The position numbers and the translations under genes are program-made. From positions 128,001-192,000 of the IMG/VR virus record IMGVR_UViG_3300045988_179268: DNA of 64,000 nt. One strand, written 5' to 3'. The notes below the pieces were generated by a model. That model did not search any database. It saw only the letters and a program-made list of their open reading frames with translations, and was not told the origin of the DNA. This stretch comes from a virus. Positions 3,626 through 18,947 of this stretch are shown one piece after another. How positions within the stretch are numbered: position 1 is the stretch's first letter; each line of letters begins with the position of its first letter.

Positions 3626-5191
3626 ATGCCTGCCGGACTGTCACTATCAGCGCTCAAACAGAACAACCACAACCCTGCCAGCCGTGAAAAAGACGAAGAA
3701 AACCGACTAAAAAACCTCAGCGCAAGCATCACCCAATACGCAGAAGACCAGCTTCCACCACCGGCACCTGAGCCTGACGTAGCGGAAGCTGAGCCGCCCG
3801 TGCCTGCCATTGACCAAGAAGCGTTAATGGCAGAAATTCTGCGTCAAGTACGAGAAGAACACAATAAAGCATCTGTCCCGCAAACGGCAGTCGTCACCAG
3901 TGACGACCTTGCCGCCGCATCAAAAGAAAAATACGGCTCCGTGGAACCAGCAGGGGAGTACAGCGCCCTCCGTAAATCCACACCCACCAGCCTCATAGAA
4001 CCCGACAACTTCCCGCTCAGTAGCATCATCACAGACGCATACGACATGGGAGCAAGCGACGTTTACATCCAACCCGAAACACCTATTCGATTCAAGGTGG
4101 GTGGCGGCTTAGCGCCCTACTACCAGCAACCTACACCTACCCGCAACGATGTTTCACGTCTACTTGAAAAAGTTACTCAGACTACCTCTTCTACAACGTT
4201 CCGCGCTGAAAAAGAACTAGACATTTCCTACACCATCCCTAAAGGAAAATACGCTGGCAGAAGGTGCCGTCTTAACGTAACATACGTTTCACCGGGTCTG
4301 TCGAACATCAATATGGTGTTCCGACTACTCGCTACCGACATTCAAGACCCATCCTACTACAACGTACCCAAAGCTTTCATTGATGCACTTCATCAAAAAG
4401 CAGGGCTTATCGTAGTCGCAGGCGTTACAGGTAGCGGTAAAACAACCACCATCGCATCAGGTCTATACTACGCGCAATGCAACGTCACAACACCACACCC
4501 CGTCACCGGCGAACCAATGGGCGTAACTATCGTCACCATCGAACAGCCAATCGAGTACCTATTCGACAACAACAACCCCAACTCAAACGGTAGCCTATTC
4601 ATCCAGCGAGAAGTGAACACCGACACACGCTCATTCCTCAACGGCATCAAATCAGCGCTACGCCAAAACCCGAACATTATGCTTATCGGTGAGGTGCGTA
4701 ACGAGCTGGAAATCCAAGCCGCGTTACGCGCCGCTGAAACAGGTCACCTTACCCTAACCACCGTCCACGCACAGGACTGTGCAGGCATCATTGAACGCTT
4801 AGCGACCAATGATGACGGTACGCTACGCGCAAATTCATTAGCTTCCATCGCATCTAGCGGGCGCGTATTCATGACGCAGGCACTAGTCAAGCGCATGGAT
4901 GGCGGGCTAATTCCTGCACATGAAGTCTTAGAGATTAGGCAATCGGACAGAGTGCTTATTGAAGACATCAAAACAGGCAATATTTCCGACATTCGCCAAC
5001 GCCTACAAGATGAAGGCGAAGACATGTGCTCCACTCTTATGAATTTGTGCCGTGCTGAAACGGGTCCCTGTTACGTTAAGGATGCGCTAGAACACGCGCC
5101 TGACCCGCACAGGTTCCTCACCCTTATCCGCACAGCCGAGGCAAACGGCGAACAGTTCAACTACCACCCAGACGAACTAAAAAACATTTAG
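3626..5191 (+). CDS. PilT/VirB11/GspE-family (T2SSE) secretion ATPase with Pro/Glu-rich N-terminal extension
   Basis: Walker A GVTGSGKTTT, Asp-box TIEQPIEY, Walker B IMLIGEVRN, His-box TGHLTLTTVHA. GAAGGA RBS. Confidence 0.8.
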   Translation: MPAGLSLSALKQNNHNPASREKDEENRLKNLSASITQYAEDQLPPPAPEPDVAEAEPPVPAIDQEALMAEILRQVREEHNKASVPQTAVVTSDDLAAASKEKYGSVEPAGEYSALRKSTPTSLIEPDNFPLSSIITDAYDMGASDVYIQPETPIRFKVGGGLAPYYQQPTPTRNDVSRLLEKVTQTTSSTTFRAEKELDISYTIPKGKYAGRRCRLNVTYVSPGLSNINMVFRLLATDIQDPSYYNVPKAFIDALHQKAGLIVVAGVTGSGKTTTIASGLYYAQCNVTTPHPVTGEPMGVTIVTIEQPIEYLFDNNNPNSNGSLFIQREVNTDTRSFLNGIKSALRQNPNIMLIGEVRNELEIQAALRAAETGHLTLTTVHAQDCAGIIERLATNDDGTLRANSLASIASSGRVFMTQALVKRMDGGLIPAHEVLEIRQSDRVLIEDIKTGNISDIRQRLQDEGEDMCSTLMNLCRAETGPCYVKDALEHAPDPHRFLTLIRTAEANGEQFNYHPDELKNI

Positions 5192-5400
5192 TTAGCATTA
5201 AAAAGTGCTAAAATGTTCCGCAAAAAGTTTGGAAAATCAGACCTGGAAATACGTCCCACAAGCGGCGTAAACTCTAGGCGCTTGATATATAACTACACAG
5301 ATAAATAAAAACCTCTCCAGCACCCCATACGCGGGCACATAGGGCAAGGAAGTCGAGCGCCAAGCCCTATAAAATCAGAGAGACTAACGGAAACAAAATG

Positions 5401-5440
5401 GTAAGCCCCTAACCTTTTATTATGAAGGTTAGGGGCTTAC
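5401..5440. terminator. bidirectional rho-independent terminator
   Basis: Perfect 16-bp stem gtaagcccctaacctt / aaggttaggggcttac with an 8-nt loop, T-runs on both sides. Marks the left border of the skewed domain. Confidence 0.85.
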
Positions 5441-5458
5441 CATTTTTAGTCCCAAAAA

Positions 5459-7102
5459 CTAAAACTCAAAAGCTGAAACGCCATCAAAAACAGACCCATC
5501 AGGGCGACACAAACGAATAGCGCGGATACGGTCATCACAACCATTCGCCAACGCCCACTCATTCACCTTACGCATCATACGGTCACCAGTACACAACCAC
5601 AATACCTGACCAAACACGCTCCTATCATCCTTATACTGCCCCAAAATAGTCTCCAAACGACCAGGCTTCTTACCGAAGCCACGCTCAATCTCAACAGCAA
5701 CACTGCGAGGCTCCCCATCCTCGCCACGCGGAACCATGCACACAATATCCGGCACATGGTACTTCGTCTCAGACGCACCACTCATTACCGCCCACATCCA
5801 CTCATTACCGCCGTAACACTCAGGAGAAACCCCAACACCACCAGCCGCACGCCAACTACGCAACACCTCACCACGGCGCGCAATCAAAACATCGCGCACG
5901 TCAAACCCAGCACGACCCCTAAACATTCCATGAATAGCGCCATTAATCACACGGTCAGGAATCACACTGAAACCACGAGCAACCTGCCCACCAACAACAC
6001 GACCACCAGATACTAAACCACCCAACCCCAAAACATCAACCGCACCATTCACCAACATCGCCCCCACATAATGAATAAGAGTACGATGCTGAAACTCGCT
6101 ATTACCCAGCGTCTTACGCGACACAGTAGCCCCACCAACACCAAACTCATCCAAACCCACACGTGTACCAACCCATACCGTATGACGCAAACCAGGAATG
6201 TCCACCGCCTCCAAACAGCCACGCCCCTGCAACCCCTTCAAATACTTCAACGCCGTAACCCTAGTAGAAACCCCCAACAACAACATCACAGCACGCACAT
6301 CAACCCAGCCAAACAGCCCAACAAACCCCATAATCTCAACCTCACGGCGCGAACCCATCAAACGCGGCGCAACACCACCATCCCCCTTGGAAGCCCTACG
6401 CACACGCTTCAAGCGCTCAGCCACAACATCCGGCGACTCACCAACCAACGGCGGAGACACAACATCAACCTCCCCAACACGAGACAGCCAATAAGAAGCC
6501 TGCTCCAACGCCAAACCATTAGAAACCTCAGTAGAACTCATACGCGAACCTCTCCCATCGTAATCAAAACGAAAACATGACAACTCACCAACACCAGCAC
6601 CTAGCCCCAAACCTCCCGGCGGCGCAACCAACCCACCTAACTCAACACCAACAGCATCACCTAAAGCCTCAACCCCCACACCAGACGCAGGAACAACAAA
6701 CCCATCCTGAATCGCCTCAAAATCAACACCATTCACGCCACCAAAAGACCACCTAGCGCGCGGAGTAACACCAAAAGAAAACCCGCCATGCACAAAAACA
6801 CCACCAACCGTAGAAACAACAGACCCATCCCAAACATACCCAGCACACTCCGCCGCAAAAGACCTAAACGCAACAGGAACCTGCGAAAAATCACGCACAC
6901 CCCGCGCACGCTCCAACACAGACCCATCCTCAACCGCAACACCAGACCCCAACACAAAACCATTCACCAAATGCCCAACACTGAACCCCGCATCACCCAA
7001 CTCACGAATAGACCCAGACCCAGAAAAAACATCCGGCGCTAAACCCTCAACAACCTTACGACCAACATTAACAACAGCCGAAGAAACAGACCCATCAACC
7101 AT
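5459..7102 (-). CDS. Replic_Relax-like (replication-relaxation family) protein with Gly/Val-rich N-terminal half
   Basis: wHTH-like segment (VSTRVTALKYLKGLQGRGCLE), then FQHRTL, then a PD-(D/E)xK-like core YHVPDIVCMV..VAVEIERGFGKKPGRLETILGQY. The start was moved to ATG 7102 (MVDGS), which has a GGAGG RBS 7 nt upstream. The track start at 7204 abuts the divergent gene's promoter region. Confidence 0.6.
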   Translation of the reverse strand: MVDGSVSSAVVNVGRKVVEGLAPDVFSGSGSIRELGDAGFSVGHLVNGFVLGSGVAVEDGSVLERARGVRDFSQVPVAFRSFAAECAGYVWDGSVVSTVGGVFVHGGFSFGVTPRARWSFGGVNGVDFEAIQDGFVVPASGVGVEALGDAVGVELGGLVAPPGGLGLGAGVGELSCFRFDYDGRGSRMSSTEVSNGLALEQASYWLSRVGEVDVVSPPLVGESPDVVAERLKRVRRASKGDGGVAPRLMGSRREVEIMGFVGLFGWVDVRAVMLLLGVSTRVTALKYLKGLQGRGCLEAVDIPGLRHTVWVGTRVGLDEFGVGGATVSRKTLGNSEFQHRTLIHYVGAMLVNGAVDVLGLGGLVSGGRVVGGQVARGFSVIPDRVINGAIHGMFRGRAGFDVRDVLIARRGEVLRSWRAAGGVGVSPECYGGNEWMWAVMSGASETKYHVPDIVCMVPRGEDGEPRSVAVEIERGFGKKPGRLETILGQYKDDRSVFGQVLWLCTGDRMMRKVNEWALANGCDDRIRAIRLCRPDGSVFDGVSAFEF

Positions 7103-7165
7103 CAGGAAACCTCCAAAACTTATAAAGAAACTCGCAATCCACATAGCCGAAAACCCACGGCAATG

Positions 7166-7176
7166 TGTGATACAAT
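7166..7176 (+). promoter_or_regulatory. SigA-type promoter, extended -10
   Basis: TGTGATACAAT, 41 nt upstream of ATG 7217. Confidence 0.6.
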
Positions 7177-7216
7177 CATACCAACCAAACCCCCACCACA
7201 TCAAAGGAAAATCCCC

Positions 7217-7429
7217 ATGAAGAAGCTGTACAACATCGCAGGACTCACCTTAATCGCCACGCTTACCCTCACCGGATGCGGCAATAGTGAGAACACCCAA
7301 AAACCAGATACCACCAAGACATCCCAATCCGAAACAGACAGCCCACGCCGCGTAGTGAAACCCTGCGGGGCAGACACCACCGGCGACATTGAAATGGGTC
7401 AGGGACTCTGCGACCACGAAGAAAGGTAA
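7217..7429 (+). CDS. small lipoprotein
   Basis: MKKLYNIAGLTLIATLTLTGC has a signal peptide and lipobox LTGC. AAGGA RBS. The track ORF begins 54 nt further upstream, inside the promoter. Confidence 0.6.
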   Translation: MKKLYNIAGLTLIATLTLTGCGNSENTQKPDTTKTSQSETDSPRRVVKPCGADTTGDIEMGQGLCDHEER

Positions 7430-7441
7430 CGAACAAACACT

Positions 7442-7720
7442 ATGGAATCATTCATCTACGGAGTTGTTAAAGTAACTCTCGAATACCACACGTACCCCAA
7501 TAACCCGGAAAAGAACCATATTGAAACCCGTGCATGGTACCTAGACGATAATAACAACAAAATTAAAACTGTCAGCACTAGTGACAACCCCCAAATGGAA
7601 GTAGTTCACGCCCTCTCAGAACACAACAAGCCAGTATACCAGAACGGTTTAGTGGGTGAGATGCTAGTCATTAATACAAATGACTACTCAATCTTCGAAA
7701 CCAAATACATTACCCACTAA
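7442..7720 (+). CDS. hypothetical protein
   Basis: 92-aa ORF of ordinary (non-skewed) composition, followed by a strong terminator. No clear RBS. Confidence 0.5.
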   Translation: MESFIYGVVKVTLEYHTYPNNPEKNHIETRAWYLDDNNNKIKTVSTSDNPQMEVVHALSEHNKPVYQNGLVGEMLVINTNDYSIFETKYITH

Positions 7721-7723
7721 CAA

Positions 7724-7772
7724 AAAAGTATCCCTTAAACTCTCTACAGAGAAGAGTTTAAGGGATACTTTT
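7724..7772. terminator. rho-independent terminator
   Basis: 20-bp stem aaaagtatcccttaaactct / agagtttaagggatactttt. The A-run and T-run are part of the stem. Confidence 0.85.
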
Positions 7773-7787
7773 TGCCCTATATTTTAA

Positions 7788-8588
7788 CTAACGCCAAGAC
7801 TCCGCGTGGTTCAAATCGCCTTCACAATACGCATAAACAACATCAAACATCTCAGGATACTGCTTAATAAACTCCGCCGGACTCATGCCAGCATACGCCA
7901 AACTAGGACCACCAATCAAAAGCGCCGTCTGAGTCGAACTAAAAGCATCGGAAGACCCATACACCCCCAAAAGCTTCACAATATCCTCCCTCACAGAACC
8001 GCCCTCAAACTGGAAACCAGGGTACCCCATGACACCCACCCACGCCGGATGCTTCGAAAAATCGGACAAAGGGAACCTAAGCACACGATTACTCTTAACC
8101 ATCTCCTCCAACTCACCCGAAGTCACACCCAAATACTCACAGACAGCACGCTCCGTATAGACACCCTGCAAATCTTCACCAAACACCGACTCCACGGCAG
8201 TAAGACCCCTTGAACCCTTGGCGACGGCAGTGTCAATCCCCTCACAAATGTAAGAAGTAAGCTTCTCCCCGTCACCCTCAGCGACATCAAGATACCCCGC
8301 CTCGCACAAGTCATCAACAGCCTTGCAAAGCATCTCCTTAACCCCCTCAACAGTTAGCGGGAACTTGCCTCTACCACCATAAGCAGAATAATAAGGCTGA
8401 GAACCCTCACGTTCACGAAGCATAAACAGCCCAACAGCCGCACAACAATGAAACAGCAAAACACGTTGAAGAGACTCAGTAATCACAACATCACCAGAGC
8501 CAACCTTCACATCAACATACTCACAAACCTCCTGCTTCACACCAGCAAGAACCTCAGCCTGCGCACTAGAAATAACACGAGAAGACAT
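7788..8588 (-). CDS. HTH plus DUF2384-like (Xre/MbcA/ParS-antitoxin-like C-terminal domain) protein, paralog family 2
   Basis: 266 aa. HTH-like YTERAVCEYLGVTSGELEEMV, then YPGFQFEGGSV, then MSPAEFIK. G/T-ending codons. Confidence 0.6.
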   Translation of the reverse strand: MSSRVISSAQAEVLAGVKQEVCEYVDVKVGSGDVVITESLQRVLLFHCCAAVGLFMLREREGSQPYYSAYGGRGKFPLTVEGVKEMLCKAVDDLCEAGYLDVAEGDGEKLTSYICEGIDTAVAKGSRGLTAVESVFGEDLQGVYTERAVCEYLGVTSGELEEMVKSNRVLRFPLSDFSKHPAWVGVMGYPGFQFEGGSVREDIVKLLGVYGSSDAFSSTQTALLIGGPSLAYAGMSPAEFIKQYPEMFDVVYAYCEGDLNHAESWR

Positions 8589-8629
8589 TAAGCAACCCCC
8601 ACAATAGAAAGAAAAATAAGTGCAAAACT

Positions 8630-8638
8630 ATGATACCA
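8630..8638 (-). promoter_or_regulatory. SigA-type promoter, extended -10
   Basis: TGGTATCAT on the minus strand, about 42 nt upstream of ATG 8588. Confidence 0.45.
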
Positions 8639-8663
8639 AACAAGGCAACACAAACACTAAAAA

Positions 8664-8700
8664 CTGGGAGGGGTGAAACAAAAAACTTCACCCCTCCCAG
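8664..8700 (-). terminator. rho-independent terminator
   Basis: 14-bp perfect stem ctgggaggggtgaa / ttcacccctcccag. T-run on the minus strand, downstream of the stop of 8714..9910. Confidence 0.85.
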
Positions 8701-8713
8701 CACCTACAAACGG

Positions 8714-9910
8714 CTACCCGCAATACCGCACAACCGCAAGAACCGCATCCACATACTCATCACCAAGACGCGCATACTCAACAGGCGCAACCAACCCAAA
8801 CCACGGCGACGGACTCTCCAAAAACTCAACAATACGGTCATCACCCCAACCCCAATCACGCAACTCACCCACAAGACGCACAGACCCAGAGAAAAACACC
8901 CAATCAATCACTAACCCATCATCCCCATAAACAGGCATCAGATGCACACCCTCAACAATATAATCGCCATCCCCATACTTCCCCGCCAGCAACTCGCCAG
9001 ACTCACACATACCCGCCACTACATCCTCAGGAACCCCCAACCCCTTAGCTACCTTGTGGGGTGGCAAACCAGCCCAACGGACACCATTAGAACGCTCATC
9101 AATACTAGCGAAACGGTGAACCAAAACACCCCACGGGACACGCAAAACCTCAGCCAAAGCCCCCAAATCAGCCAAAGAACCGCCACCCACAGACGGAACA
9201 ACACCTGCCACCGTCAAAGCAACAACATTCCCCGGCACTGGAACATTACCCACACCAGCACGCCCCCACGCACGCCCAACAACCTCAGCGCGCCGCCCCA
9301 ACGCACATTCACGCGCATCATCCAACACAAGAGCAACCAGAGCCTCATCACCCGACATCAACAACTCAGCCGCCGACAAAAACCCATACTCAAACGACGG
9401 CGTGAACAAAAAATCATCAGTAATATGAGGCTTCACACCAACAGCCCTGAACATCTTCACACACTCAAAAAACTCAGGGTTAAACCTCAAAGCGCCCTCA
9501 CCAGACACACTCCAAACTCCCTTACCGGCACCACCCCAAAACTGGGCACGAGTAAACAGCAAAGCACCCTCCCAGATGCCACCATTAAGGTAACCCTCCT
9601 CATACAGGCGCATCACCTCAGTGCCCGGCAACCCCTTATCCTCCAGCTCAGCCAAAGACAACCCGTCACCCCACTCACAATAAATACCCCACCCGGCAGA
9701 ACCGCCTCCAAACGCTTCCTCCAAACGCTCATACATGAACTCAGTAGAGACACCAAGAACACTAGAAACTAGCTCAAAATGCTCATTCTCCCAATCATAA
9801 GTAGACTTGGGAAGCCCTAAAGAACGAACCCTCAACACATCCTCAGCAGAGAAAAACTTGAAGCCAGGGTACTCATCAAAAACATTGTGCAACATGGAAG
9901 TAGCCTCCAA
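8714..9910 (-). CDS. DUF2384-like domain protein, paralog family 2 (larger member)
   Basis: 398 aa. C-terminal LMPVYGDDGLV..FLESPSPWFGLVAPVEYARLGD. GGAGG RBS 8 nt upstream of the ATG. Third codon positions are almost all G/T. Confidence 0.6.
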   Translation of the reverse strand: MEATSMLHNVFDEYPGFKFFSAEDVLRVRSLGLPKSTYDWENEHFELVSSVLGVSTEFMYERLEEAFGGGSAGWGIYCEWGDGLSLAELEDKGLPGTEVMRLYEEGYLNGGIWEGALLFTRAQFWGGAGKGVWSVSGEGALRFNPEFFECVKMFRAVGVKPHITDDFLFTPSFEYGFLSAAELLMSGDEALVALVLDDARECALGRRAEVVGRAWGRAGVGNVPVPGNVVALTVAGVVPSVGGGSLADLGALAEVLRVPWGVLVHRFASIDERSNGVRWAGLPPHKVAKGLGVPEDVVAGMCESGELLAGKYGDGDYIVEGVHLMPVYGDDGLVIDWVFFSGSVRLVGELRDWGWGDDRIVEFLESPSPWFGLVAPVEYARLGDEYVDAVLAVVRYCG

Positions 9911-10054
9911 AAGAAAAACAAAAATACTTGCACTCCCTATAATACCCCCCCCCTCAAAAAATCAAGAAAACACGCCGGTAAACATCTCTAGATACAATAC
10001 ATCCCACGCATAGAAGAGAATTAGAACACCCCTAAAGAGCATCCATCGCAAATA

Positions 10055-10065
10055 TGTGGTACAAT
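10055..10065 (+). promoter_or_regulatory. SigA-type promoter, extended -10
   Basis: TGTGGTACAAT, followed by leader hairpin ggttgagg/cctcaacc at 10078-10097. Confidence 0.6.
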
Positions 10066-10178
10066 CTAAACATGAAAGGTTGAGGTGAGCCTCAACCCAC
10101 CACCCCACCCTAACCATACAGGGAACCCAAAAAAGGGGCGAACACCCAATCATTAAACACAGAAAGAGAGCATCAACA

Positions 10179-11000
10179 ATGCGAAACATCACCCCCTTCC
10201 TCTACTGGGAAACCCTCAACACCAACGACGGTATCCTCCTCATCCCCACCGACAACACCACCAACGACCGCATGGCAATCTACACCATCGACCAGGTAAC
10301 CAACACCGACCACGCCACCGCACGCCTGCGCCACGCAAGCTTCAACGCACCCAAGACCATCACCCTCACCCGCACCAACGGACAGCTCACCACCAACGAC
10401 CTACCAGACCTCAAAGCCGTAAACATCGGCACCCGAGGCGACGCTATCGAACCCACCTACTACGCCGTCGAAAACGACGACAACATCACCATCTGGTACA
10501 GCACCGAACACTACAACGACATCGCCATCGCACACACCCTCAAAGCCAACGGAGAAACCCGCGTAATCTTCCACGAACCCGACGAATACGATACCCCCGA
10601 AGGCGGGTACAACATCTGGACAGTCCTCCAAGCAACCGAAAACTACGAAGACACCGACACCCTCCCCGAAACCTTCAACATCCCAGAAGCCAACACCGCA
10701 CCTCTCACCCCCGAAACCGCACTAGCACTCCACGACACCCTCAACCACCCCGAATACCACACCCTCAACGACAAAGAAACCCTCGAAGAAGAACTAATCT
10801 CCCTCTGGCAAAACATCTCAGACTACTACGCAATCCCTGGCGAAATGCACTGGGTATCCGACACTGAAATCCTCTGGCGCGCCAAAGACTACCTCACCAC
10901 CGTACACGACATCGCAATCAAAGAAGGACGCGCCAACCTAGCCAACCAAACCCTCCACCACATCAACACCATCACCACCCACACCAACTACGAAGAATAA
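10179..11000 (+). CDS. acidic hypothetical protein (Thr/Asn/His/Asp/Glu-rich)
   Basis: 273-aa ORF with an ATG start and its own promoter. Third codon positions are almost exclusively C or A, the mirror image of its minus-strand neighbours. Confidence 0.6.
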   Translation: MRNITPFLYWETLNTNDGILLIPTDNTTNDRMAIYTIDQVTNTDHATARLRHASFNAPKTITLTRTNGQLTTNDLPDLKAVNIGTRGDAIEPTYYAVENDDNITIWYSTEHYNDIAIAHTLKANGETRVIFHEPDEYDTPEGGYNIWTVLQATENYEDTDTLPETFNIPEANTAPLTPETALALHDTLNHPEYHTLNDKETLEEELISLWQNISDYYAIPGEMHWVSDTEILWRAKDYLTTVHDIAIKEGRANLANQTLHHINTITTHTNYEE

Positions 11001-11021
11001 CCCCCAAAACACCAAAAGATA

Positions 11022-11057
11022 CCCCTGGCAACCCGCACAAACACGGGAAACCAGGGG
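11022..11057. terminator. terminator hairpin between convergent genes
   Basis: cccctgg/ccagggg outer stem plus cccg/cggg inner stem. The minus-strand side is followed by tatcttttggtgtttt. Confidence 0.6.
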
Positions 11058-11083
11058 CATCTTCCTATACCACCAACAACACA

Positions 11084-13360
11084 CTAACCACCCAAAACCG
11101 ACACAACCTCACCCACCGAAACACCCAACCCCAACACCGGCGAACCAACCGGCACATCAACCCAACCACCAGAAACACCCCAACCAGAACGACCAAACAA
11201 CCCAGCAGACCCACCACCACCAGAAACAACCCCCACCGGCGAACCAAACCCCTCACTACCAGCCACAAACCCCAAACCCAACCCACCATCCAAACCACCA
11301 CGCCCAGAAACAACCGAACCAACAACACCAGACAAAACACGCCCACCAACAGACCCCAAAACACCATCCAAACCACCACGCAACAACCCCCACAAAACAC
11401 CAGAACCCAAACCCGCAACCCTACCAAACACCGGACAAACCCCCGACAACCCCAAACCACCACCAACACCAGACACCACATCAACCAACCCCACCACAGA
11501 CGAAACACCCCTCAAACCACCAACCAAAGAACCCACCGGCGACCCACCAGGCAAAACACCACCACCAAACACACCCGACAAACCCCCAACACCCCACAAA
11601 CCAGACACACCATCAACCACACCACCACAAGAACCAGCAACCCCCACCGACAAAACACCACCACCAAACACCGACCCAAACCCCACAGGAACAAGCCCCG
11701 CCCCAAACACAAGAGAACGCCACAACCACCCATCAACATCAACCACAGCCCCAACACCCCCATCAACAAAACCACCATCAACATCAAAACCCTCAACAGC
11801 ACCAACAACACCAGACACACCCGGCACAAAACCACCAGCCCCAACACCCCAAACACCAACCCTACGCCCAAAACCAGCCCCAACACCACCACCACCCAAA
11901 ACACCCAAACCAGCAGACGACAAACCCCAAGAACAAGACAACCCGCCAACACCAGAAACACCCCCACCAACCGGCAACCCAAAAACCCCAACAACACCCG
12001 ACAAATCAACACCAAACCCCGAAACAGAACCCAAACCAGCCAACGCATCCAACCCAGACACCCCCGACACCAACCACGGCACAGCAACCCCAACACCACC
12101 AGAAACCCCACCAACATCCGCCGCACCAGCACCCACACCACCAAACCCAGCAGAGCCAACCCCACCAAAATCAACCCCACCGACAAAATCACCAACGGGC
12201 AAACCAATCGGCAAACCGCACACCCCAGACCCCATAAACAACCCCACTGGCGAACAACCCAACATGCCCAATAACCCATCAACCCCACCAGCCACAGAAC
12301 CACCAAACCCAGACGAAGAACCAAACCTCACGCCAGAACCACCCACAACACCAAACAAACCCGAACCTCTAGAAGCCCCCACAGACCTATTAAAACTAGT
12401 AGAAGGTAAAACAGTACCGCCAATAGACAAAACACCCTCAGAAGCCCCCTCAAGCCCCGTAGAAACCCCCTCTATAGTAACCCCATCAGTAGCAGGCTCA
12501 GAAAACTCCTCGCCACCACCCCAAAAACCCTCAACAAAACCGCCACCAACACCAACCCCCACAAAACCCCCAACACCATCCACAACACCAGACGAGCCCC
12601 ACCCCACCGACACACCAACCCCCACAGGCTCAACAAAACCGGCACCACGAAGCGAACCACCCCAAACACCAACCCGCCCATCAACCCCCAACAACCCAAC
12701 AACACCAGAATCAACGCCCCACAACTCAACACCAACCCCACCCGGAACAAACACCCCACACACACCACCAGACAACCCATCCCCCAACAACCCAGAACCC
12801 AAACCACCAACACCAACACCAGACTCCAAAACACCACGCCCAACAACCACAACAACCACACTCCAAAAAAGAAAAAACAAAAAAATAGTACACCACAAAC
12901 ATAGCCACAAAAACACCCCCACCCAGACAACCCCCAAAAAACAAAACCCCCAACACCCACCCAACAAACAAAAACCCCACAAAAACACCCCCACAACAAA
13001 AAAAACCAAACCAACCACCCCAAGCAAACCCCAAAAAACAACGCACCACAAACCCAAAACCACACAAAGAACTTGGGCAACACTAAAAATAAACACCAAA
13101 AACACGAATAACCAAGACACAAGACACAAGAGAAAAGGAAAAAGCAACAAGACATAACAGACACAGACACGCAAAGAGGAAAGCAATAACACTACAAAGA
13201 AAGAAGTACCCAGGATAAACAGATACACAAAATAAACACCAATACACGACAGACATAGAGGATAAGCGCAGACACATACACCATAAACAGAAAGAAGCAC
13301 AGGCACACAATACGCAAGCACAGAAAAACACGAAGGCAACAACAGATACAAGAGACACAC
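11084..13360 (-). CDS. low-complexity Gly/Val/Ser-rich ORF (coding strand and true start uncertain)
   Basis: 758-aa ORF ending 26 nt before a terminator that works best on the minus strand. The rare bases show 3-nt periodicity. All six frames are nearly stop-free here, and a Pro/Thr-rich + frame (open 11088-13157, first ATG at 12264) shares the same wobble position. Confidence 0.3.
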   Translation of the reverse strand: MCLLYLLLPSCFSVLAYCVPVLLSVYGVCVCAYPLCLSCIGVYFVYLFILGTSFFVVLLLSSLRVCVCYVLLLFPFLLCLVSWLFVFLVFIFSVAQVLCVVLGLWCVVFWGLLGVVGLVFFVVGVFLWGFCLLGGCWGFCFLGVVWVGVFLWLCLWCTIFLFFLFWSVVVVVVGRGVLESGVGVGGLGSGLLGDGLSGGVCGVFVPGGVGVELWGVDSGVVGLLGVDGRVGVWGGSLRGAGFVEPVGVGVSVGWGSSGVVDGVGGFVGVGVGGGFVEGFWGGGEEFSEPATDGVTIEGVSTGLEGASEGVLSIGGTVLPSTSFNRSVGASRGSGLFGVVGGSGVRFGSSSGFGGSVAGGVDGLLGMLGCSPVGLFMGSGVCGLPIGLPVGDFVGGVDFGGVGSAGFGGVGAGAADVGGVSGGVGVAVPWLVSGVSGLDALAGLGSVSGFGVDLSGVVGVFGLPVGGGVSGVGGLSCSWGLSSAGLGVLGGGGVGAGFGRRVGVWGVGAGGFVPGVSGVVGAVEGFDVDGGFVDGGVGAVVDVDGWLWRSLVFGAGLVPVGFGSVFGGGVLSVGVAGSCGGVVDGVSGLWGVGGLSGVFGGGVLPGGSPVGSLVGGLRGVSSVVGLVDVVSGVGGGLGLSGVCPVFGRVAGLGSGVLWGLLRGGLDGVLGSVGGRVLSGVVGSVVSGRGGLDGGLGLGFVAGSEGFGSPVGVVSGGGGSAGLFGRSGWGVSGGWVDVPVGSPVLGLGVSVGEVVSVLGG

Positions 13361-13709
13361 AAAAGAAGATAAGAGGCAACACAGTACGTATACACAAGAA
13401 AGGCAAAAGAAGCATAAAGAGAGGACATAAGAGCGGAAGGCACATATATGCTAGAAACACATAGGGATACACGCAGACTAAGTAATACACGACAGGTATA
13501 GAGAGGGTAGGTAGATAGGGTAAGCACGCATAGGATGGCACACGGTATATACGGAGGGGCTAGAAACGGTTAGTGGGTGTGAGTGGTGGTAGGTTGGGCA
13601 GGGTGGAAGGTGGTGTGGTGGTTGGGTGTGGTGTGGGTCATATTGCTCACGCGGTTGGTTGCTCTTTCCCTTTTTTCTTTCTCCTTTTCTTGTGTTTTTG
13701 GTAGCGTGC

Positions 13710-13772
13710 TGTGGCGCGGGGTATTTTTGGGTGTTTCGGTATGTGGGGGAATGTATCATTTGCCCTAGTCAG
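13710..13772 (+). repeat. 63-bp perfect direct repeat, copy 1
   Basis: tgtggcgcggggtatttttgggtgtttcggtatgtgggggaatgtatcatttgccctagtcag, identical to 13955-14017. Confidence 0.95.
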
Positions 13773-13811
13773 GACGTTTTTGCGTTTTGGGTGACAGGGC
13801 TGTAGTAGTGG

Positions 13812-13843
13812 CTTAAAATCAACCTGTAGAAGTTGATTTTAAG
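13812..13843. repeat. AT-rich hairpin 1 (cttaaaatcaac / gttgattttaag)
   Basis: 12-bp perfect stem, 8-nt loop. Shares the AAAATCAAC..GTTGATTTT core with hairpin 2. Confidence 0.9.
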
Positions 13844-13954
13844 GTGTTTTATATAGATTTTTGAGGTGAATTGGGTTGTCTGCGTCTTTGGCGCAGGGGT
13901 TTTGGTGGTAATTATGACGTTTTTTAGGTTTTTTGGGTGGGTTTTTGTGTGCAT

Positions 13955-14017
13955 TGTGGCGCGGGGTATTTTTGGGTGTTTCGGTATGTGGGGGAATGTA
14001 TCATTTGCCCTAGTCAG
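13955..14017 (+). repeat. 63-bp perfect direct repeat, copy 2
   Basis: Identical to 13710-13772, offset by 245 bp. Confidence 0.95.
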
Positions 14018-14058
14018 CGCGTTATGCACTTTGGTACAGATTCTCATTTTCAGGGGTT

Positions 14059-14086
14059 AAAAATCAACCTCCAGGGGTTGATTTTT
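14059..14086. repeat. AT-rich hairpin 2 (aaaaatcaacc / ggttgattttt)
   Basis: 11-bp perfect stem, 6-nt loop. Sits in the same position relative to DR copy 2 as hairpin 1 does to copy 1. Confidence 0.9.
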
Positions 14087-14220
14087 GGTAAGCGCATGGT
14101 GCGAGCGCGATTTTAAGCCTTGGTGCCGGGGTGTCGAAGGATGGTTTTTATTGCTTTGCGGGTGCCAGGTGTGGTAGGTTGCGCCATTGTGTATCACAAG
14201 CTTGCGTGTCGTCTATTTTC

Positions 14221-14231
14221 TGTGGTATAGT
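14221..14231 (+). promoter_or_regulatory. SigA-type promoter, extended -10
   Basis: TGTGGTATAGT with TTGCGT about 17 nt upstream. Leader hairpin at 14249-14269. Confidence 0.6.
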
Positions 14232-14307
14232 TATAGGGTAATCATATGGCGGGTAATCGTTACCTGCCGTTATTCTTCATCTTGTTCCTATGGAGGGATT
14301 GTTAGTT

Positions 14308-14661
14308 ATGGCTTTTAGTGTTGAGATTCAGGTTAGGGCTAAGAACACTTATGCCCGGTTGGTGTGTTCTTTGTCTGAGATTGGTGCGCTGTTCTCTACG
14401 GGCAGTTTTGTGAAGGCGGCGGTTTTGAATTTGGCGATGTTTGATGCGAGCGCTTCGTCTGCTAATCCTAGTGTGTGGGATGGGGTGGATGAGAAAGAGC
14501 GTCGCTTGCAGTGGTCGTACAATGAGTTGCGTAACCTTGCGTCTTCTTTTGCCCCCGATTGGGCTGAGGCTGTTGCTAAGGATGATGAGGCGCTGGCTTT
14601 GGAGATTTTGAACGCTGTGGATGATGTGGTTTCTTATGCGCGTGAGCGTGTATTTGGTTAG
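14308..14661 (+). CDS. hypothetical protein
   Basis: 117 aa counted from ATG 14308, which has GGAGGG 10 nt upstream. The track start is 14290. G/T-ending codons. Confidence 0.55.
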   Translation: MAFSVEIQVRAKNTYARLVCSLSEIGALFSTGSFVKAAVLNLAMFDASASSANPSVWDGVDEKERRLQWSYNELRNLASSFAPDWAEAVAKDDEALALEILNAVDDVVSYARERVFG

Positions 14662-14675
14662 CACTGTCTTGTGTT

Positions 14676-14714
14676 AGCGAAGGGGCGGGTTCCTGTTTGG
14701 GTTCCCGCCTCGCT
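14676..14714 (+). terminator. rho-independent terminator
   Basis: agcga..ggcggg / cccgcc..tcgct stem, followed by a T-rich tract. Confidence 0.6.
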
Positions 14715-14830
14715 TCTCTACTTTTGGTTTTCTGCTTGGGTGAGTGTGTGCTTGCTTGGGTGGCATGTTTTGTTTTTGTGGGTGGGTGTTCTGCCTGCTT
14801 CATTGAGTTTATTGAAAGGGAGTTTTGTTG

Positions 14831-15916
14831 ATGTCTGTTTTTCCTGGTGATGTTGTGTCTACTGTTGTGGGTGTTCTGCATGTGCAGACTATTGTTATGG
14901 AGCGTTCGCGTGAGGATGTGTCTTTCGCGGTGTCTGGTGTTGATGGTGGGGGTGTGGTTCACTCGAACATTCCTATTGGTGAGGGTGTGGTTCCGTTGGC
15001 TGTTGATGTGCCTGAGTCTGAGGCGTTGGTGTGGTTTGACCGTGAGCGTCGCTTGAAGCGTTTGGGGGATGCTGTGTTTAGTCCTGGTGATGGTGTTAGG
15101 GCTTTGGGTAAGCTGATGGAGGGGCAGGGTGTTGAATTGTCGTTGTCTGACTGTGAACCTGCTGAGGCTGTTGTTAGGTGGCTGGGTGAGGTTGAGGCTT
15201 CTCTGGTTGGGGCGAGGGCGTGGGTTACAGGGAAGCGTATGGAGTGCCTGCGTGCGTTTGAGGATTTTCATGCGGGCTGGTTGAAGTATCATAGTCGCCC
15301 TTGGGGTGAGCCGTCTTTGGGTGAGCGTTGTGATGTGCGACCTGGTATTGGGTTTAGGTCTGGTGGTGTGTATCGGTTCCGACGTGAGGGTGCGCCTATT
15401 GAGGATGGGTATGAGTATTTCAAGGTTGTTCGTACTGTCGGTCAGCCTGAGATTGTTATTTATGGTGCGTCTACTGAGGTAAGTGAGTGTCTGGGTTTTA
15501 TTCATGGTGTTAAGTATGGTCCTAACTATGATTATCTTCTCCTGCTGGCTGAGGTTGGCGGTAAGAAGATTTCGATGCTGGCGGATACTGTGAAGCTTCT
15601 GCCTATTGGTTCTTTTGAGGATATTGAGTCTTACCTTGAGTTGAGTGAGTATGAGGACGTTTCTCTTCCTGGCGCATTGCGCAACATTTTCCTTGACCTG
15701 TTTGCCGCTGGTGACGGTAAGCCTAAGTGCCTGCCCTCCCGTGAAGAGCTTAACGGTGGCTACTACGGTTGGGGTGATGACTACGGTAAGCGTTGTGGTG
15801 AGTTGATGGAGGCAAGTGCTGACATTCTGTTCGATATTGAGAAGAGTATCGGGTATGTCCGGTGGTTGCGTGAACAGCTGGTAGGCTTCTATCGTGAGCT
15901 AGGGTTCACTATCTAG
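14831..15916 (+). CDS. paralog family 1 protein (PGDVV beta-domain plus helical modules)
   Basis: 361 aa from ATG 14831 (AAGGGAG RBS). C-terminal GDGKPKCLPS..FDIEKSIGYVRWLREQL aligns with 28347..29120. The ARAWVTGKRMEC motif is shared with two paralogs. Confidence 0.7.
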   Translation: MSVFPGDVVSTVVGVLHVQTIVMERSREDVSFAVSGVDGGGVVHSNIPIGEGVVPLAVDVPESEALVWFDRERRLKRLGDAVFSPGDGVRALGKLMEGQGVELSLSDCEPAEAVVRWLGEVEASLVGARAWVTGKRMECLRAFEDFHAGWLKYHSRPWGEPSLGERCDVRPGIGFRSGGVYRFRREGAPIEDGYEYFKVVRTVGQPEIVIYGASTEVSECLGFIHGVKYGPNYDYLLLLAEVGGKKISMLADTVKLLPIGSFEDIESYLELSEYEDVSLPGALRNIFLDLFAAGDGKPKCLPSREELNGGYYGWGDDYGKRCGELMEASADILFDIEKSIGYVRWLREQLVGFYRELGFTI

Positions 15917-16161
15917 GGGGGTCGCCGCCTAGGGAGGGGTGGCGTATGGGAGCCGCTGAATCCTCCGGCTACTAGGTTTGGGTGACCGCTCTTGTAGTTG
16001 ATGGCGAGCGCTCTCTTGGGCGGCTATGTCTTAGTGGTGGTTGTTTGCTGGTTGCTTCGCTAAGTGTGGTGATGGGTGTGAGTGCTTGAAGGGTGCTCAT
16101 GCCCATCATTTGTTTCTGCTGGGGTGAGCCACACACTATAGCTTGCGCCCCCGTCTGAATC

Positions 16162-16172
16162 TGTGGTATAAT
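16162..16172 (+). promoter_or_regulatory. SigA-type promoter, extended -10
   Basis: AATCTGTGGTATAAT, 70 nt upstream of ATG 16242. Confidence 0.65.
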
Positions 16173-16241
16173 TAAATTGTTCAATCGGGGGTGTTTCCCG
16201 TAAAGCCAATGACCAATACGCATGTTTGAGGAGTCACACAA

Positions 16242-16640
16242 ATGTCCTGCGCTGTTAAGATGATGAAGCCCTACACTTACACCACCCTTCCCTTTACCGC
16301 TACCAGCACTGCCCACATGGGCGATGTTGAGTCATGGGTTTCTTCTAAGATGACTCTTGAGTTCGTATCCTGGGATTCAGGTGAGGAGGCTCACGTTACT
16401 TATGGGGTGCAGGCGACTAACCCGGCTAAAGAGCCTGGCGATGACGGCTGGTTGATTGGTCGTGTGACTATGAGTGTTGATGTTGAGGGTGAGGTTGCTC
16501 TGAGTGATGCTCTTATGCGTCGTATGGTGGAAGACTTTAAGGTTGTGATGCGTAATCGTGTAGCGCAGGGTCAGGCTCTTGTGGACTTTGAGGGTGGGGT
16601 TCCGGTCTTTAAGCAGACTGTGACGTTCGCTACCGTGTAG
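16242..16640 (+). CDS. hypothetical protein
   Basis: 132-aa ORF with GAGGAG RBS 8 nt upstream. Confidence 0.6.
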   Translation: MSCAVKMMKPYTYTTLPFTATSTAHMGDVESWVSSKMTLEFVSWDSGEEAHVTYGVQATNPAKEPGDDGWLIGRVTMSVDVEGEVALSDALMRRMVEDFKVVMRNRVAQGQALVDFEGGVPVFKQTVTFATV

Positions 16641-16775
16641 TAGGTGGCATGTGTTAGCTTTAAGCCGTGGGGTGGCTTCCTGTACAGGGGTTGCTTTGCG
16701 GCTTTATTTATGTTTCCTGTGACTTATATGTGGTTGTGGTGTTTCCACCTCGTAGGTTGCCTCAATGTTTCACTG

Positions 16776-16786
16776 TGTGAGATAAT
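16776..16786 (+). promoter_or_regulatory. SigA-type promoter, extended -10
   Basis: TGTGAGATAAT. Part of a ~55-bp module also present in diverged form at about 16064-16119. Confidence 0.5.
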
Positions 16787-16855
16787 GGGTATGAGTACTT
16801 AGGAGGGTGCTCATGTTAATTATTTATTTTCTTGTGAAAGGAAGGTGTGCCTGTT

Positions 16856-17032
16856 ATGGGTGTTGTGAAGGGTGGTCGCTCTTTGGTTCGTGAGTCTGGT
16901 GTGGTTCGTTGGGATGATGGTTCGCGCCTGTTTGGTGAACGGTTTGCGAGCGCCAACTATAAGGTCACTATCGGGCGCGTTAATGTTGGTACTGCTGAGG
17001 TTGGCATTGGGTCGTCTGAGGGGCGGAGGTAA
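16856..17032 (+). CDS. small hypothetical protein
   Basis: 58 aa from ATG 16856 (GAAAGGAAGG RBS). Its stop lies 3 nt before the next small ORF. Confidence 0.4.
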   Translation: MGVVKGGRSLVRESGVVRWDDGSRLFGERFASANYKVTIGRVNVGTAEVGIGSSEGRR

Positions 17033-17035
17033 GGC

Positions 17036-17209
17036 GTGCCTATTTGGGTTATTGCTTTAGAATCCTATGTCCTAATTATGGTTCTAGTTTTCAGTCTTGG
17101 CATTGCTCTTGATGTGAACATGAGGAGTCTTGTTGAGATGCTTGCAGTGATTCATATACCTGTTCTTATTGCCGCCGGTGTAGCTCACTTTGGGCTACAC
17201 ATAATCTAG
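17036..17209 (+). CDS. small membrane protein (57 aa, not in ORF track)
   Basis: GTG start with GGAGG 6 nt upstream. Two hydrophobic helices (PIWVIALESYVLIMVLVFSLGIAL..IPVLIAAGVAHFGL). Confidence 0.45.
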   Translation: MPIWVIALESYVLIMVLVFSLGIALDVNMRSLVEMLAVIHIPVLIAAGVAHFGLHII

Positions 17210-17247
17210 GTGACTTTCGATTGCCACTTATAACAGGAAGGTGAAGT

Positions 17248-17409
17248 ATGGGTCTGCTGATTATTGTCTTGGTTTTTGTTTTGATTGAGGCTTTACTTTC
17301 TCTTGTTGGGGTGTGTCTTGGTTGGGGTGCCTATGAGTACTTAATGATACATGTTGTACTGTATGGCGTTACGTTTGTTGTGGCAGGTTCCAGTATGACC
17401 TCTGTGTAG
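17248..17409 (+). CDS. small membrane protein (53 aa, not in ORF track)
   Basis: ATG with AGGAAGG RBS 6 nt upstream. MGLLIIVLVFVLIEALLSLVGVCLGWG.. has two helices. Confidence 0.5.
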   Translation: MGLLIIVLVFVLIEALLSLVGVCLGWGAYEYLMIHVVLYGVTFVVAGSSMTSV

Positions 17410-17503
17410 ATGACGGCTAGGTGTTGTACGTGGTGTGCGGCTAACTAATATAGTTCTTTGTGTCCCACTTCACACATATTTGGCTTGCATACAGTTTTAA
17501 ATC

Positions 17504-17514
17504 TGTGATAGACT
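17504..17514 (+). promoter_or_regulatory. SigA-type promoter, extended -10 with -35 TTGCAT
   Basis: AAATCTGTGATAGACT. TTGCAT at 17485-17490 with an 18-nt spacer. Confidence 0.75.
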
Positions 17515-17586
17515 ATAAATATAAGGCAAGCGGGAAAGAAACCCGAAAGCCACGAAGCATCAACCAACTACCGAAGGGTGGCAACC

Positions 17587-17901
17587 ATGTCCGTCGCAAC
17601 TTTCAACTTTGAGCTTTCCGCTGAGGAACTTGCAGAGCTTGCACCCCACGCAAACTACGAGTACTCCAACTGCTGTGAAGTCAAGGTAGACCACATCGAC
17701 ATTAACGACTACGATAACACCATCACCCTTACTCTAGGAAATGACCACGGTGCGCATGAGGTGGATGCTACCCCTGAGTCTGCTGAGGACTTCGAGGCAC
17801 TTACCTCTCGTTACGAGGGAGACGAGATTGCCGGGTACCGTCTCGACAAGGCTATCTACAGCCTCGACCCCGAAGATGGAGAGGTTGAAATCAACATCTA
17901 A
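17587..17901 (+). CDS. small very acidic protein (family 4, N-terminal TFNFEL motif)
   Basis: 104 aa from ATG 17587 (CTACCGAAGGG leader). About 30% Asp+Glu. Ends ..EVEINI. Confidence 0.7.
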   Translation: MSVATFNFELSAEELAELAPHANYEYSNCCEVKVDHIDINDYDNTITLTLGNDHGAHEVDATPESAEDFEALTSRYEGDEIAGYRLDKAIYSLDPEDGEVEINI

Positions 17902-17907
17902 ACATTG

Positions 17908-17946
17908 ACAAACCCCCTATGGAGTTAGTACCCATAGGGGGTTTGT
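17908..17946 (+). terminator. rho-independent terminator
   Basis: 15-bp perfect stem acaaaccccctatgg / ccatagggggtttgt. Confidence 0.85.
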
Positions 17947-18024
17947 GTTATATGCTTGTCTTAGCGGTGGAACGGCATTCTCTGTGGCATAGTTAGATAA
18001 TCTTCATAGTGAACCTTTGGCGCG

Positions 18025-18033
18025 TGTTACAAT
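18025..18033 (+). promoter_or_regulatory. SigA-type promoter, extended -10
   Basis: TGTTACAAT, 68 nt upstream of ATG 18101. Confidence 0.55.
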
Positions 18034-18100
18034 TGTTGTGTATGGGTTGGGTAGTCCGCCTAGCCGCATAATCCACATTTATTAGCTGGAGAGGGATACT

Positions 18101-18853: not shown

Positions 18854-18899
18854 CTGTTTGCACCCTGCATCAACATTCCAATATAGAGTGACTTTAAGG

Positions 18900-18908
18900 T
18901 GTTATACT
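18900..18908 (+). promoter_or_regulatory. SigA-type promoter, extended -10
   Basis: TGTTATACT, 40 nt upstream of ATG 18948. Confidence 0.5.
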
Positions 18909-18947
18909 GGTTAGCACGTTTCTCGATATTGCTAGGAGTGGCACGTA

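Follow-up and report, generated by a model that had tools for sequence, protein, structure and literature searches.

Two-armed strand asymmetry around a conserved non-coding pivot in a large, ORFan-rich mobile element

Nucleotide skew between the strands of DNA is usually a weak trace from which replication origins are guessed. Here we describe a domain in which skew instead approaches saturation, located in a 64-kb stretch (hereafter the window; positions 128,001 to 192,000 of IMG/VR record IMGVR_UViG_3300045988_179268, numbered from its first letter) of an ORFan-rich element of ~300–410 kb that belongs to an abundant family of giant elements. On both sides of a non-coding pivot, the strand running 5' to 3' away from the pivot—the outward strand—is dominated by the keto bases G and T at the expense of the amino bases A and C, with 93% G+T over all four-fold degenerate sites and up to 100% in stretches of one gene. 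This bias acts at the level of the DNA strand, depends on position, is conserved and stationary, and accompanies a recurrent anatomy of pivot and arms; we read the domain as a conserved early or control region of the element with two arms. As to its cause, we tentatively favor a model, with chances we place a little below even, in which divergent transcription and/or replication from the pivot chronically leaves the outward strand unpaired; the unpaired state of this strand, the start of transcription or replication at the pivot, and the primacy of mutation over selection are all inferred in it.

We computed the G+T fraction of the plus strand in 500-nt windows across the full 64 kb. This fraction lies at 0.21–0.36 over positions 5501–11000, falls to 0.08–0.18 at 11001–13000 (where T accounts for 2–6% of bases and the GC and AT skews are -0.70 and +0.84), rises to 0.59–0.74 at 13501–17500, and remains at 0.56–0.64 up to 20500, save for an unskewed island at 17.5–18.0 kb. 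The rest of the window has a plus-strand mean of 0.50 with a standard deviation of 0.07, and 1-kb windows deviate from the 22–64 kb background by as much as 7 standard deviations. These statistics bear out an initial annotation of this DNA, which described an asymmetry far beyond ordinary bacterial skew that leaves the outward strand rich in keto bases to either side of the pivot; its hand counts of 60-nt lines were exact in all six cases (56, 49 and 41 A+C; 46, 44 and 43 G+T), and the sequence it quoted for 13541–13600 proved identical on recheck. Of the limits it gave, the left start coincides with a terminator at 5397–5444, whereas the right end at 17450 did not hold, as the skew decays there and is visible to 20.5 kb.

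Window-wide minima of cumulative skew fall at 13360 for G-C, 13566 for T-A, and 13494 for keto minus amino bases, as judged on the 64-kb window plus 10 kb of the 320-kb replicon. The G-C and T-A flips therefore lie ~200 bp apart with a purine-rich tract between them, rather than within ~50 bp as first described, and the AC, AG, GT order of this switch zone is repeated in two related loci (L012 and L013). The polarity is that of a bidirectional origin, as had been proposed, with the window's cumulative GC-skew minimum at the pivot. Beyond the domain, weaker skew of the same sign continues leftward for at least 12 kb (plus-strand third-position G+T 0.31–0.45) and rightward for ~20 kb, to ~33 kb (third-position G+T 0.56–0.72); genes to the left of the domain are directed toward the pivot.

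Third codon positions carry the bias most strongly: on the outward strand of the window, they are 85–93% keto in all of the left arm and, to the right, in genes lying up to ~2 kb from the pivot. Genes that face inward show that this is independent of coding direction. In related loci, such inward genes (five in L012, one of them with a Peptidase_M78 domain, four in L013, and two in L008) have outward-strand third-position G+T of mostly 0.80–0.94, with two weaker cases at 0.66–0.71, while the outward neighbors interleaved with them have 0.78–0.99. Because inward and outward genes are alike in bias, the bias is a property of the DNA strand, and codon-level and protein-level causes are excluded. 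A codon-usage or amino-acid cause was rejected on this basis, as the coding strands of inward genes are 66–94% A+C at position 3, most of them 80–94%.

Where the encoded amino acid is conserved, four-fold sites on the outward strand of the left arm contain 1.8% A, 5.2% C, 43.6% G and 49.4% T, and those of the right arm 4.2% A, 8.7% C, 19.5% G and 67.7% T, compared with 24.8% A, 16.6% C, 28.1% G and 30.4% T in flanking genes. The skews at four-fold sites are thus ~0.79 for GC and ~0.93 for TA. Every synonymous site over 15 kb is touched by the bias, and the proteins are reshaped as well, with outward genes rich in Gly, Val, Leu, Phe and Trp, and inward genes in Thr, Asn, His and Pro.

The junction was found in 20 metagenome contigs assembled independently in different projects (ENA, JGI and NCBI whole-genome shotgun), which excludes an assembly chimera at ~13.56 kb, a caveat raised at the outset. 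Every fetched related contig that spans the pivot keeps the layout, including lineages in which the left-arm protein g398 is 39–67% identical: plus-strand G+T is 0.22–0.34 in the left arm and 0.09–0.13 in an extreme block, then flips to 0.6–0.75 in the right arm and decays over ~5 kb. More generally, an artefact or trivial cause, be it a chimera, a repeat of low complexity or the protein or codon preferences of genes that share an orientation, appears so improbable that it can practically be set aside. Although most arm genes do face outward and the extreme block is of low complexity, the spanning contigs, the equal bias of inward genes, and the concentration of the bias at synonymous sites all argue otherwise; plasmid and phage collections also gave no match, and the bias is not accounted for by any tandem repeats.

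The features of the domain are listed below from left to right, with orientation given relative to the pivot.

5397–5444, both strands: bidirectional intrinsic terminator with a 20-bp stem, from a terminator scan; left edge of the skew domain.
5459–7204, minus strand: g581, outward gene, whose likely start would give 547 amino acids, ending at 7102; position 3 is 91% G+T.
7788–8588, minus strand: g266, outward ORFan of strain-variable presence; position 3 is 87% G+T.
8714–9910, minus strand: g398, outward ORFan; position 3 is 88% G+T.
10179–11000, plus strand: g273, inward gene with an A+C-rich coding strand; position 3 is 93% A+C.
11084–12850, minus strand: outward gene for a low-complexity protein of ~588 amino acids, rich in Gly, Val, Ser and Leu (the extreme block).
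12.85–14.29 kb: non-coding pivot of ~1.4 kb with divergent promoter-like elements, outward G-cluster tracts and one to three hairpin modules.
12851–13100, minus strand: leader on the outward strand with G-runs (GGGG/GGGGG between T-runs) and no periodicity.
13100–13566: switch zone, A-rich and purine-rich on the plus strand (69% purine at 13001–13500).
13556–13640, plus strand: tract of G-clusters on the outward strand of the right side, with the conserved GGTGTGGTGTGGGTCA..TTGCTCACGCGG at its end.
13710–14095, plus strand: two tandem 245-bp units, each with a 69-nt repeat, a -10-like hexamer and an ~85-nt module.
14221–14231, plus strand: extended -10 promoter-like element TGTGGTATAGT ahead of g123, conserved in L013.
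14246–14270, plus strand: hairpin in the 5' untranslated region ahead of the first right-arm gene, g123, conserved in L013.
14290–14661, plus strand: g123, outward ORFan; position-3 G+T 0.88.
14825–15916, plus strand: g363, outward ORFan; position-3 G+T 0.85.
16068–16110 and 16662–16704, plus strand: strong terminator-like hairpins, with which composition steps coincide.
16242–16640, plus strand: g132, outward ORFan; position-3 G+T 0.76.
16641–20500, plus strand: decaying tail with smaller genes, G+T 0.56–0.69.
17578–17901, plus strand: unskewed island; position-3 G+T 0.42.
18101–18853, plus strand: g250; position-3 G+T 0.70.

Comparison of homologues located at different distances from the pivot separated the effect of position from that of gene identity. 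Homologues of g132 have a third-position G+T of 0.95–0.96 at ~1 kb from the pivot (L012 and L025) vs. 0.71–0.77 at 2.9 kb (14 loci), and those of g363 have 0.83–0.87 at 1.9 kb vs. 0.62–0.68 at ~3–5 kb (L012) and 9.5 kb (L025). In the right arm, bias is therefore set by distance from the pivot and not by gene identity. The left arm, in contrast, is flat, with outward third-position G+T of 0.83–0.95 including its last 600 nt, and then steps down from 0.86–0.87 to 0.55–0.72 across the 5397–5444 terminator, so that an amplitude graded by position describes the right arm alone. An IS605-family TnpB is present in the left arm of a single relative, L044 (L044:17900–19600; window ~7433–7439); this insert is 86% identical to the window copy at 51712–53010 and unskewed (third-position G+T 0.62). 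The unskewed state of both this insert and the island at 17578–17901 indicates that the bias is acquired in place over time.

Polymorphism was compared at equal depth among 15 close strains, with a mean pairwise divergence of 1.45% in the flank and 1.62% in g581. Third positions of g581 are in a stationary state with balanced flux: 33 sites have an amino base as the minor allele and 29 a keto base, and 29 of 49 amino-majority sites are polymorphic vs. 33 of 499 keto-majority sites. These counts imply a ~9-fold asymmetry per site, which equals the composition ratio.

In the explanation we tentatively prefer, the outward strand would be the non-template strand of strong divergent transcription, limited at the left by the 5397–5444 terminator and attenuated stepwise at the right, and, if forks are primed at the pivot in the manner of R-loop-type origins, might additionally serve as their lagging-strand template. 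Substitution from amino to keto bases, biased on this strand, would by now have reached a stationary state, with nearly every free site of the outward strand driven to G+T whatever the local gene direction. To our knowledge, replication and transcription both enrich G and T on the outward-type strand in every system studied, as established for replication skew in bacteria and for mammalian asymmetries linked to transcription and CpG islands (PMC2817419), and we favor chronic unpairing because the outward strand would be both non-template strand and lagging-strand template, each of which enriches G+T. The terminator-bounded left arm, the stepwise right arm, and the G-clusters just outward of the pivot argue for transcription units as the frame, and the abrupt left edge at the terminator fits a transcription unit better than a gradient of replication distance. 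Promoter-like elements, the Shine-Dalgarno motif with its start codon, G-clusters and terminators are placed as they would be for transcription units and are conserved, although inward genes also lie inside the arms. Coupling to R-loop-type initiation, as in ColE1, T4 and mitochondria, is possible by analogy. Divergent transcription or R-loops and/or origin firing had been among the candidate causes given in the initial annotation.

Several observations weigh against unpairing and its mutational consequences. Were spontaneous deamination responsible, C should be depleted well beyond A, but A is the rarer of the two at outward four-fold sites in both arms. Transitions per third-position site amount to 0.099 in g581 vs. 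0.132 in the flank, and outward-strand G<->T transversions in g581 number 26 vs. ~9 expected from the flank rate (~3x); the third positions of the Gly/Val-rich gene show 22 G/T changes vs. 6 transitions. With A depleted beyond C, no excess of transitions, and G<->T changes over-represented, the deamination signature initially proposed is not supported. As transitions all swap keto and amino bases while G<->T changes stay keto, the pattern resembles a constraint on keto identity. Deep coalescence combined with fast reversal of amino states could mimic a G<->T excess in the inner domain; we dropped this excess as proof of selection, and retained only the equal-depth comparison of g581 with the flank.

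Polarization likewise revealed no clear amino-to-keto excess. We polarized changes by singletons, by Fitch parsimony on neighbor-joining trees at four-fold sites, and with L051 as outgroup, and all three gave an unreliable keto-to-amino excess, distorted by parsimony bias, saturation among distant lineages, and the recombinant L051. Parsimony under skewed composition yields such a keto-to-amino excess artefactually. Amino alleles are over-represented in singletons at position 3, marginally so (Fisher p = 0.04), and L051, which is divergent and recombinant, contributes 47 of the 78 singletons.

The replication component faces difficulties of its own. There is no DnaA-box cluster, and no iterons were found, the repeats being 245-bp units that resemble transcription modules instead; no Rep, primase, helicase or initiator family was found among the arm proteins; no origin RNA known from Rfam was found; and past ~34 kb the sign of the weak skew becomes patchy, which misfits a simple replichore. 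Hence the typical marks of the bidirectional origin suggested at first, namely an initiator gene, DnaA-box cluster or iterons, were not found.

The mutational pattern also bears on a rival explanation, in which selection, or fixation resembling biased conversion, maintains two-letter strands with each outward A or C, and equally each inward G or T, being slightly costly. We consider it unlikely, though we take it seriously. Two motives are conceivable: as single-stranded DNA, an A+C strand would fold into designed hairpins alone if it lacked palindromes and other structure, or a first-expressed region could be invisible to restriction enzymes and hairpin nucleases after entry. DNA words are under intense selection in this element, whose almost complete loss of restriction sites is itself a further notable feature. 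Within the 64 kb, GATC occurs once vs. 248 expected and GGCC 3 times vs. 227 expected; 26 of 64 hexamer palindromes are absent (each expected ~14–16 times) and 30 of 64 occur at most twice, for a total of 423 hexamer palindromes vs. 990 expected; GCWGC (GCAGC/GCTGC), CTGAAG, GAGACC and GGACC-containing 6-mers are also absent. In the arms, little folding is predicted for the A+C strand, with values of -6 to -22 kcal/mol per 150 nt compared with ~-39 elsewhere, and the sole conserved self-complementary elements of the pivot are short hairpins with invariant stems. Under-represented transitions relative to keto-preserving G<->T changes, depletion of A as strong as that of C, and the marginal enrichment of amino alleles in singletons would all be consistent with selection, as would a published speculation that leading regions must shun structure save at single-stranded DNA promoters (PMC13478746).

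Restriction-site avoidance, however, is a property of the whole element and not of the domain, and palindrome density in the coding arms is just ~40% below the rest of the window, implying a small gain in restriction evasion. Nor would selection obviously explain the polarity flip at the pivot or the decay of the right arm with distance. Unskewed insertions are tolerated, the singleton signal is mostly due to the divergent strain L051, and selection coefficients would need to act at thousands of synonymous sites.

A quite improbable rival invokes a low-fidelity or non-proofreading polymerase that makes the first kilobases of the outward nascent leading strand, with G.T and T.G mispairs enriching G and T, much as DNA polymerase I copies the first kilobases of ColE1. 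Such a polymerase would account for the roughly equal depletion of A and C, for a gradient decaying over a few kb from the pivot, and for a local domain atop a weaker replicon-wide skew, and it has a precedent at human CpG-island origins, where differences in polymerase error spectra are the favored explanation of asymmetries (PMC2817419). Yet the origin at the pivot that it needs is hypothetical, the left arm is flat over 8 kb and ends at a terminator, transition density among close strains is not raised, and none of the ~50 window open reading frames (ORFs) scanned matches a polymerase family.

Finally, single-strandedness could arise in conjugative transfer, with the domain as leading region, or in rolling-circle replication, an alternative we judge very improbable. 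Genes for ATPases of type IV secretion system or Tad type (AAA_10, ParA/TadZ-like and T2SSE) lie directly to the left, and the hypervariable, fast-evolving ORFans recall anti-defence leading regions, with Peptidase_M78 in some strains. A displaced strand, however, is continuous through the nick site and would have a single polarity with no flip, which counts against the exposure during transfer listed in the initial annotation; no relaxase or Rep family was detected; and two contigs with the pivot motif are filed as viral in IMG/VR. Conjugative leading regions (PMC13478746), which enter as single-stranded DNA and carry anti-defence genes expressed early, share with the domain their hypervariable small ORFans next to secretion-type ATPase genes, conserved hairpins and a structure-poor strand, but here the polarity flips inside the domain, genes occupy both strands, and no oriT or relaxase was found. 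The leading-region study reported only a raised variance of GC skew, far below the amplitude seen here (PMC13478746).

In kind, then, the domain is a strand asymmetry around a divergence point, with the sign of an origin or divergent promoter. Its near-saturated synonymous sites, extreme GC and TA skews, local bipolar form and deep conservation were unmatched in the databases and papers searched, and its amplitude was not found reported outside organelles in the literature searched. Skew at bacterial, plasmid and phage origins, where the leading strand has G>C and T>A and the cumulative minimum marks the origin, is alike in its keto-rich outward strand, its GC-skew minimum at the pivot, and weaker skew over 12–20 kb. 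Bacterial chromosome skew is typically 0.05–0.3, however, whereas the four-fold values of this domain are ~0.79 for GC and ~0.93 for TA and are limited to ~8 + 7 kb; an abrupt terminator edge, the lack of DnaA boxes, iterons and initiator, and the patchy sign past 34 kb set it further apart. The heavy and light strands of vertebrate mitochondrial DNA, where C->T and A->G changes arise on the strand exposed by strand-displacement replication, offer a similar synonymous GC skew, strand-level bias and position-dependent amplitude. Mitochondrial AT skew is moderate, whereas here TA skew is as extreme as GC skew with A rarer than C, and the present domain is bipolar and local, has no transition excess, and over-represents G<->T changes.

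The transcription-associated effect in mammals is a matter of a few percent. Asymmetries associated with transcription and CpG islands (PMC2817419) resemble the domain in keto excess away from a point with divergent promoters and possibly an origin, positive GC and TA skew, and transcription-unit bounds, but differ from the 85–99% keto synonymous sites found here in a prokaryotic mobile element with genes on both strands. R-loop regions, including immunoglobulin switch regions and the ColE1, T4 and mitochondrial origins, provide a further parallel, with G-clusters directly outward of the pivot on both non-template strands and kilobases of G-dense non-template strand after them. Here, by contrast, the strands are as T-rich as G-rich (rU:dA hybrids being weak), encode proteins, and are longer than known origin R-loops.

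The domain also invites the question of whether two-letter strands can be used, or tolerated, by mobile elements. A bolder proposal, in which a dedicated mechanism maintains a pair of two-letter arms flanking a bidirectional region of control or origin, strikes us as rather unlikely. If it were true in a first version, programmed and long-lived unpairing through R-loop or strand-displacement initiation would be a built-in strand-specific mutator acting on a cassette of fast-evolving early or anti-defence genes; in a second, an A+C-only strand would have been selected as unable to fold or bear palindromes, leaving designed hairpins alone to act; either would amount to a new principle of genome organization in a mobile element. 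The domain offers a natural system in which to separate mutation from selection in the formation of skew, and could reveal the process that exposes one strand, be it transcription, R-loops, origin firing or polymerase asymmetry. On a practical level, such domains break short-read assemblies, and gene callers are misled because six frames are open.

This last difficulty applies to the extreme block, which is easily mis-annotated as a result. The near-disappearance of stop codons from all six frames, initially attributed to the whole domain, holds for ~10.9–13.5 kb only, with well-defined arm genes elsewhere. Contrary to the view that the region need not be coding, conserved genes occupy either strand of the arms, and the extreme block is one gene more. 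Its sequence is strictly periodic by three bases, in a single register that spans exactly 11084 to ~12850, and over ~800 nt the third position lacks any G or T in plus-strand letters. The minus-strand frame is preferred, based on its Shine-Dalgarno motif, its start codon, and boundaries that match the periodic region; both the GGAG motif (12861–12864) and the GTG start (12850) are kept in L012 and L013, while a Pro/Thr-rich plus-strand frame, whose third positions coincide with those of the minus-strand frame, was rejected, having no start codon before 12264. Of 11 indels that distinguish strains in the block, 9 have a length divisible by 3, compared with mostly 1–2 nt in neighboring non-coding DNA. 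The protein is encoded almost wholly by G/T-only codons, with third positions that are 91–100% G+T in the window and 98–99% in L008, L012 and L013; its length as called varies from 547 to 745 amino acids among strains, and it always adjoins the pivot.

Within the pivot, a leader motif, GGCTATG..TGTACT, is conserved upstream of the Gly/Val-rich gene. The ~85-nt module consists of GCCCTWGTCAGNGCGTTATGCAC with a 5-bp hairpin, followed by a AAAATCAACC/GGTTGATTTT hairpin and a T-run; the second module hairpin has an invariant stem, AATCAACC/GGTTGATT, and a variable loop, and the copy at 13750–13850 is degenerate. The modules are conserved in all relatives, where we counted 26 copies (22 distinct), at 1–3 per locus, for instance at L013:5832–6179, at L012:6428–6528, and in three copies between 10832 and 13610 of L025. 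Wobble changes are one-sided only, with zero compensatory pairs, and no Rfam family was matched by the modules, which are candidate outward small RNAs or protein-binding hairpins.

Among the left-arm genes, g581 encodes a winged-helix domain and an invariant C-terminal H..PD...ExE....K motif that looks like that of a PD-(D/E)xK nuclease. Its only fold matches are winged helix-turn-helix proteins of MarR type, obtained from a low-confidence AlphaFold model (predicted local distance difference test score, pLDDT, of 46). Homologues of g581 range from 99% down to 32% identity on contigs of 200–370 kb; it is the slowest-evolving arm protein, with more distant homologues of 930 amino acids (P0113 and P0114). 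The g398 family spans 97% to 34% identity, nearly all on contigs of up to 383 kb. The inward gene g273 forms a conserved protein cluster with strong differences in base use among codon positions and a third position that is 92–95% A+C in 16 loci, though its variability at position 3 is no higher than at positions 1 and 2. Sequence searches of Pfam, PHROGs, NCBIfam and PDB returned zero matches for the arm proteins, and the AlphaFold model of g132 in the right arm (pLDDT 58) was too poor to assign a function. On the plus strand of the right arm, GCGAGCGC occurs in four copies (14101, 14446, 16004 and 16946); this sequence is 7–10 times over-represented on outward arm strands in four lineages, with no consistent context in them.

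The arm proteins are fast-evolving, with a ratio of polymorphisms at positions 1 and 2 to those at position 3 of 37:46, vs. 6:79 in the flanking ATPase genes. Gene content is hypervariable among strains in the arms and in the region to their right (7400–10200 and 17500–34000), as seen across loci L001–L008, L015–L026 and L044–L053: g266 is present or absent depending on the strain, Peptidase_M78 genes occur in some strains, and g273 is apparently replaced in L008. A diversity-generating retroelement or other templated hypermutation was rejected: the ~50 ORFs scanned included no reverse-transcriptase family, a scan of the pivot region (12800–14400) gave no template/variable repeat pair, and the bias is spread over all synonymous sites of 15 kb. 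The block upstream of the domain (window 1–5191; L044:1–10000) is highly conserved, with 0.5–1% divergence between strains; its genes, all facing the pivot, encode a 908-amino-acid DEAD/Helicase_C protein, a YdjM-like protein, a 411-amino-acid AAA_10 ATPase, a 584-amino-acid ParA/TadZ-like ATPase, and a 521-amino-acid T2SSE (CpaF/VirB11-like) ATPase.

With regard to the identity of the element, exact matches to the CpaF-like and AAA_10 proteins occur in 331 and 476 assembly-index blocks, on contigs of up to 412 kb, and the sample labels appear to resemble human cohort names. The two IMG/VR contigs with the pivot motif measure 360,643 and 306,861 bp. Window proteins are nearly all ORFans, the exceptions being AAA_10, the ParA/TadZ-like ATPase, the T2SSE ATPase, a Bax-inhibitor-like protein and TnpB; the ORF at 22653–23831 matches PHROG families of unknown function. 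PLSDB plasmids and GTDB species-representative genomes gave no match, which argues against the large extrachromosomal elements of Segatella as far as these sequence comparisons go, and megablast against phage (INPHARED), plasmid and E. coli collections gave none either. An Inocle identity was ruled out, Inocle GC content being 32%. The nearest CpaF-like matches in GTDB are 28% identical and come from Patescibacteria, while tblastn with TnpB and CpaF returned distant matches only; Neisseria DNA uptake sequences and Haemophilus uptake signal sequences do not occur in the window.

Elsewhere in the window, plus-strand genes at 37614–42724 have A+C-rich third positions (0.38–0.40 keto), and minus-strand genes at 48118–51024 have keto-rich coding strands (0.69–0.73), so that there may be additional domains of weaker strand bias, or inverted segments, in the element. 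The remotest homologue of g398, at 34% identity, was found in a different element (L014; ERZ505017 NODE_145, 34 kb), where its neighbors encode TraG/VirD4-like, DnaG primase, LigA, and Rpf-like transglycosylase/LysM proteins and the skew is only moderate, hinting at an actinobacterial-type conjugative relative.

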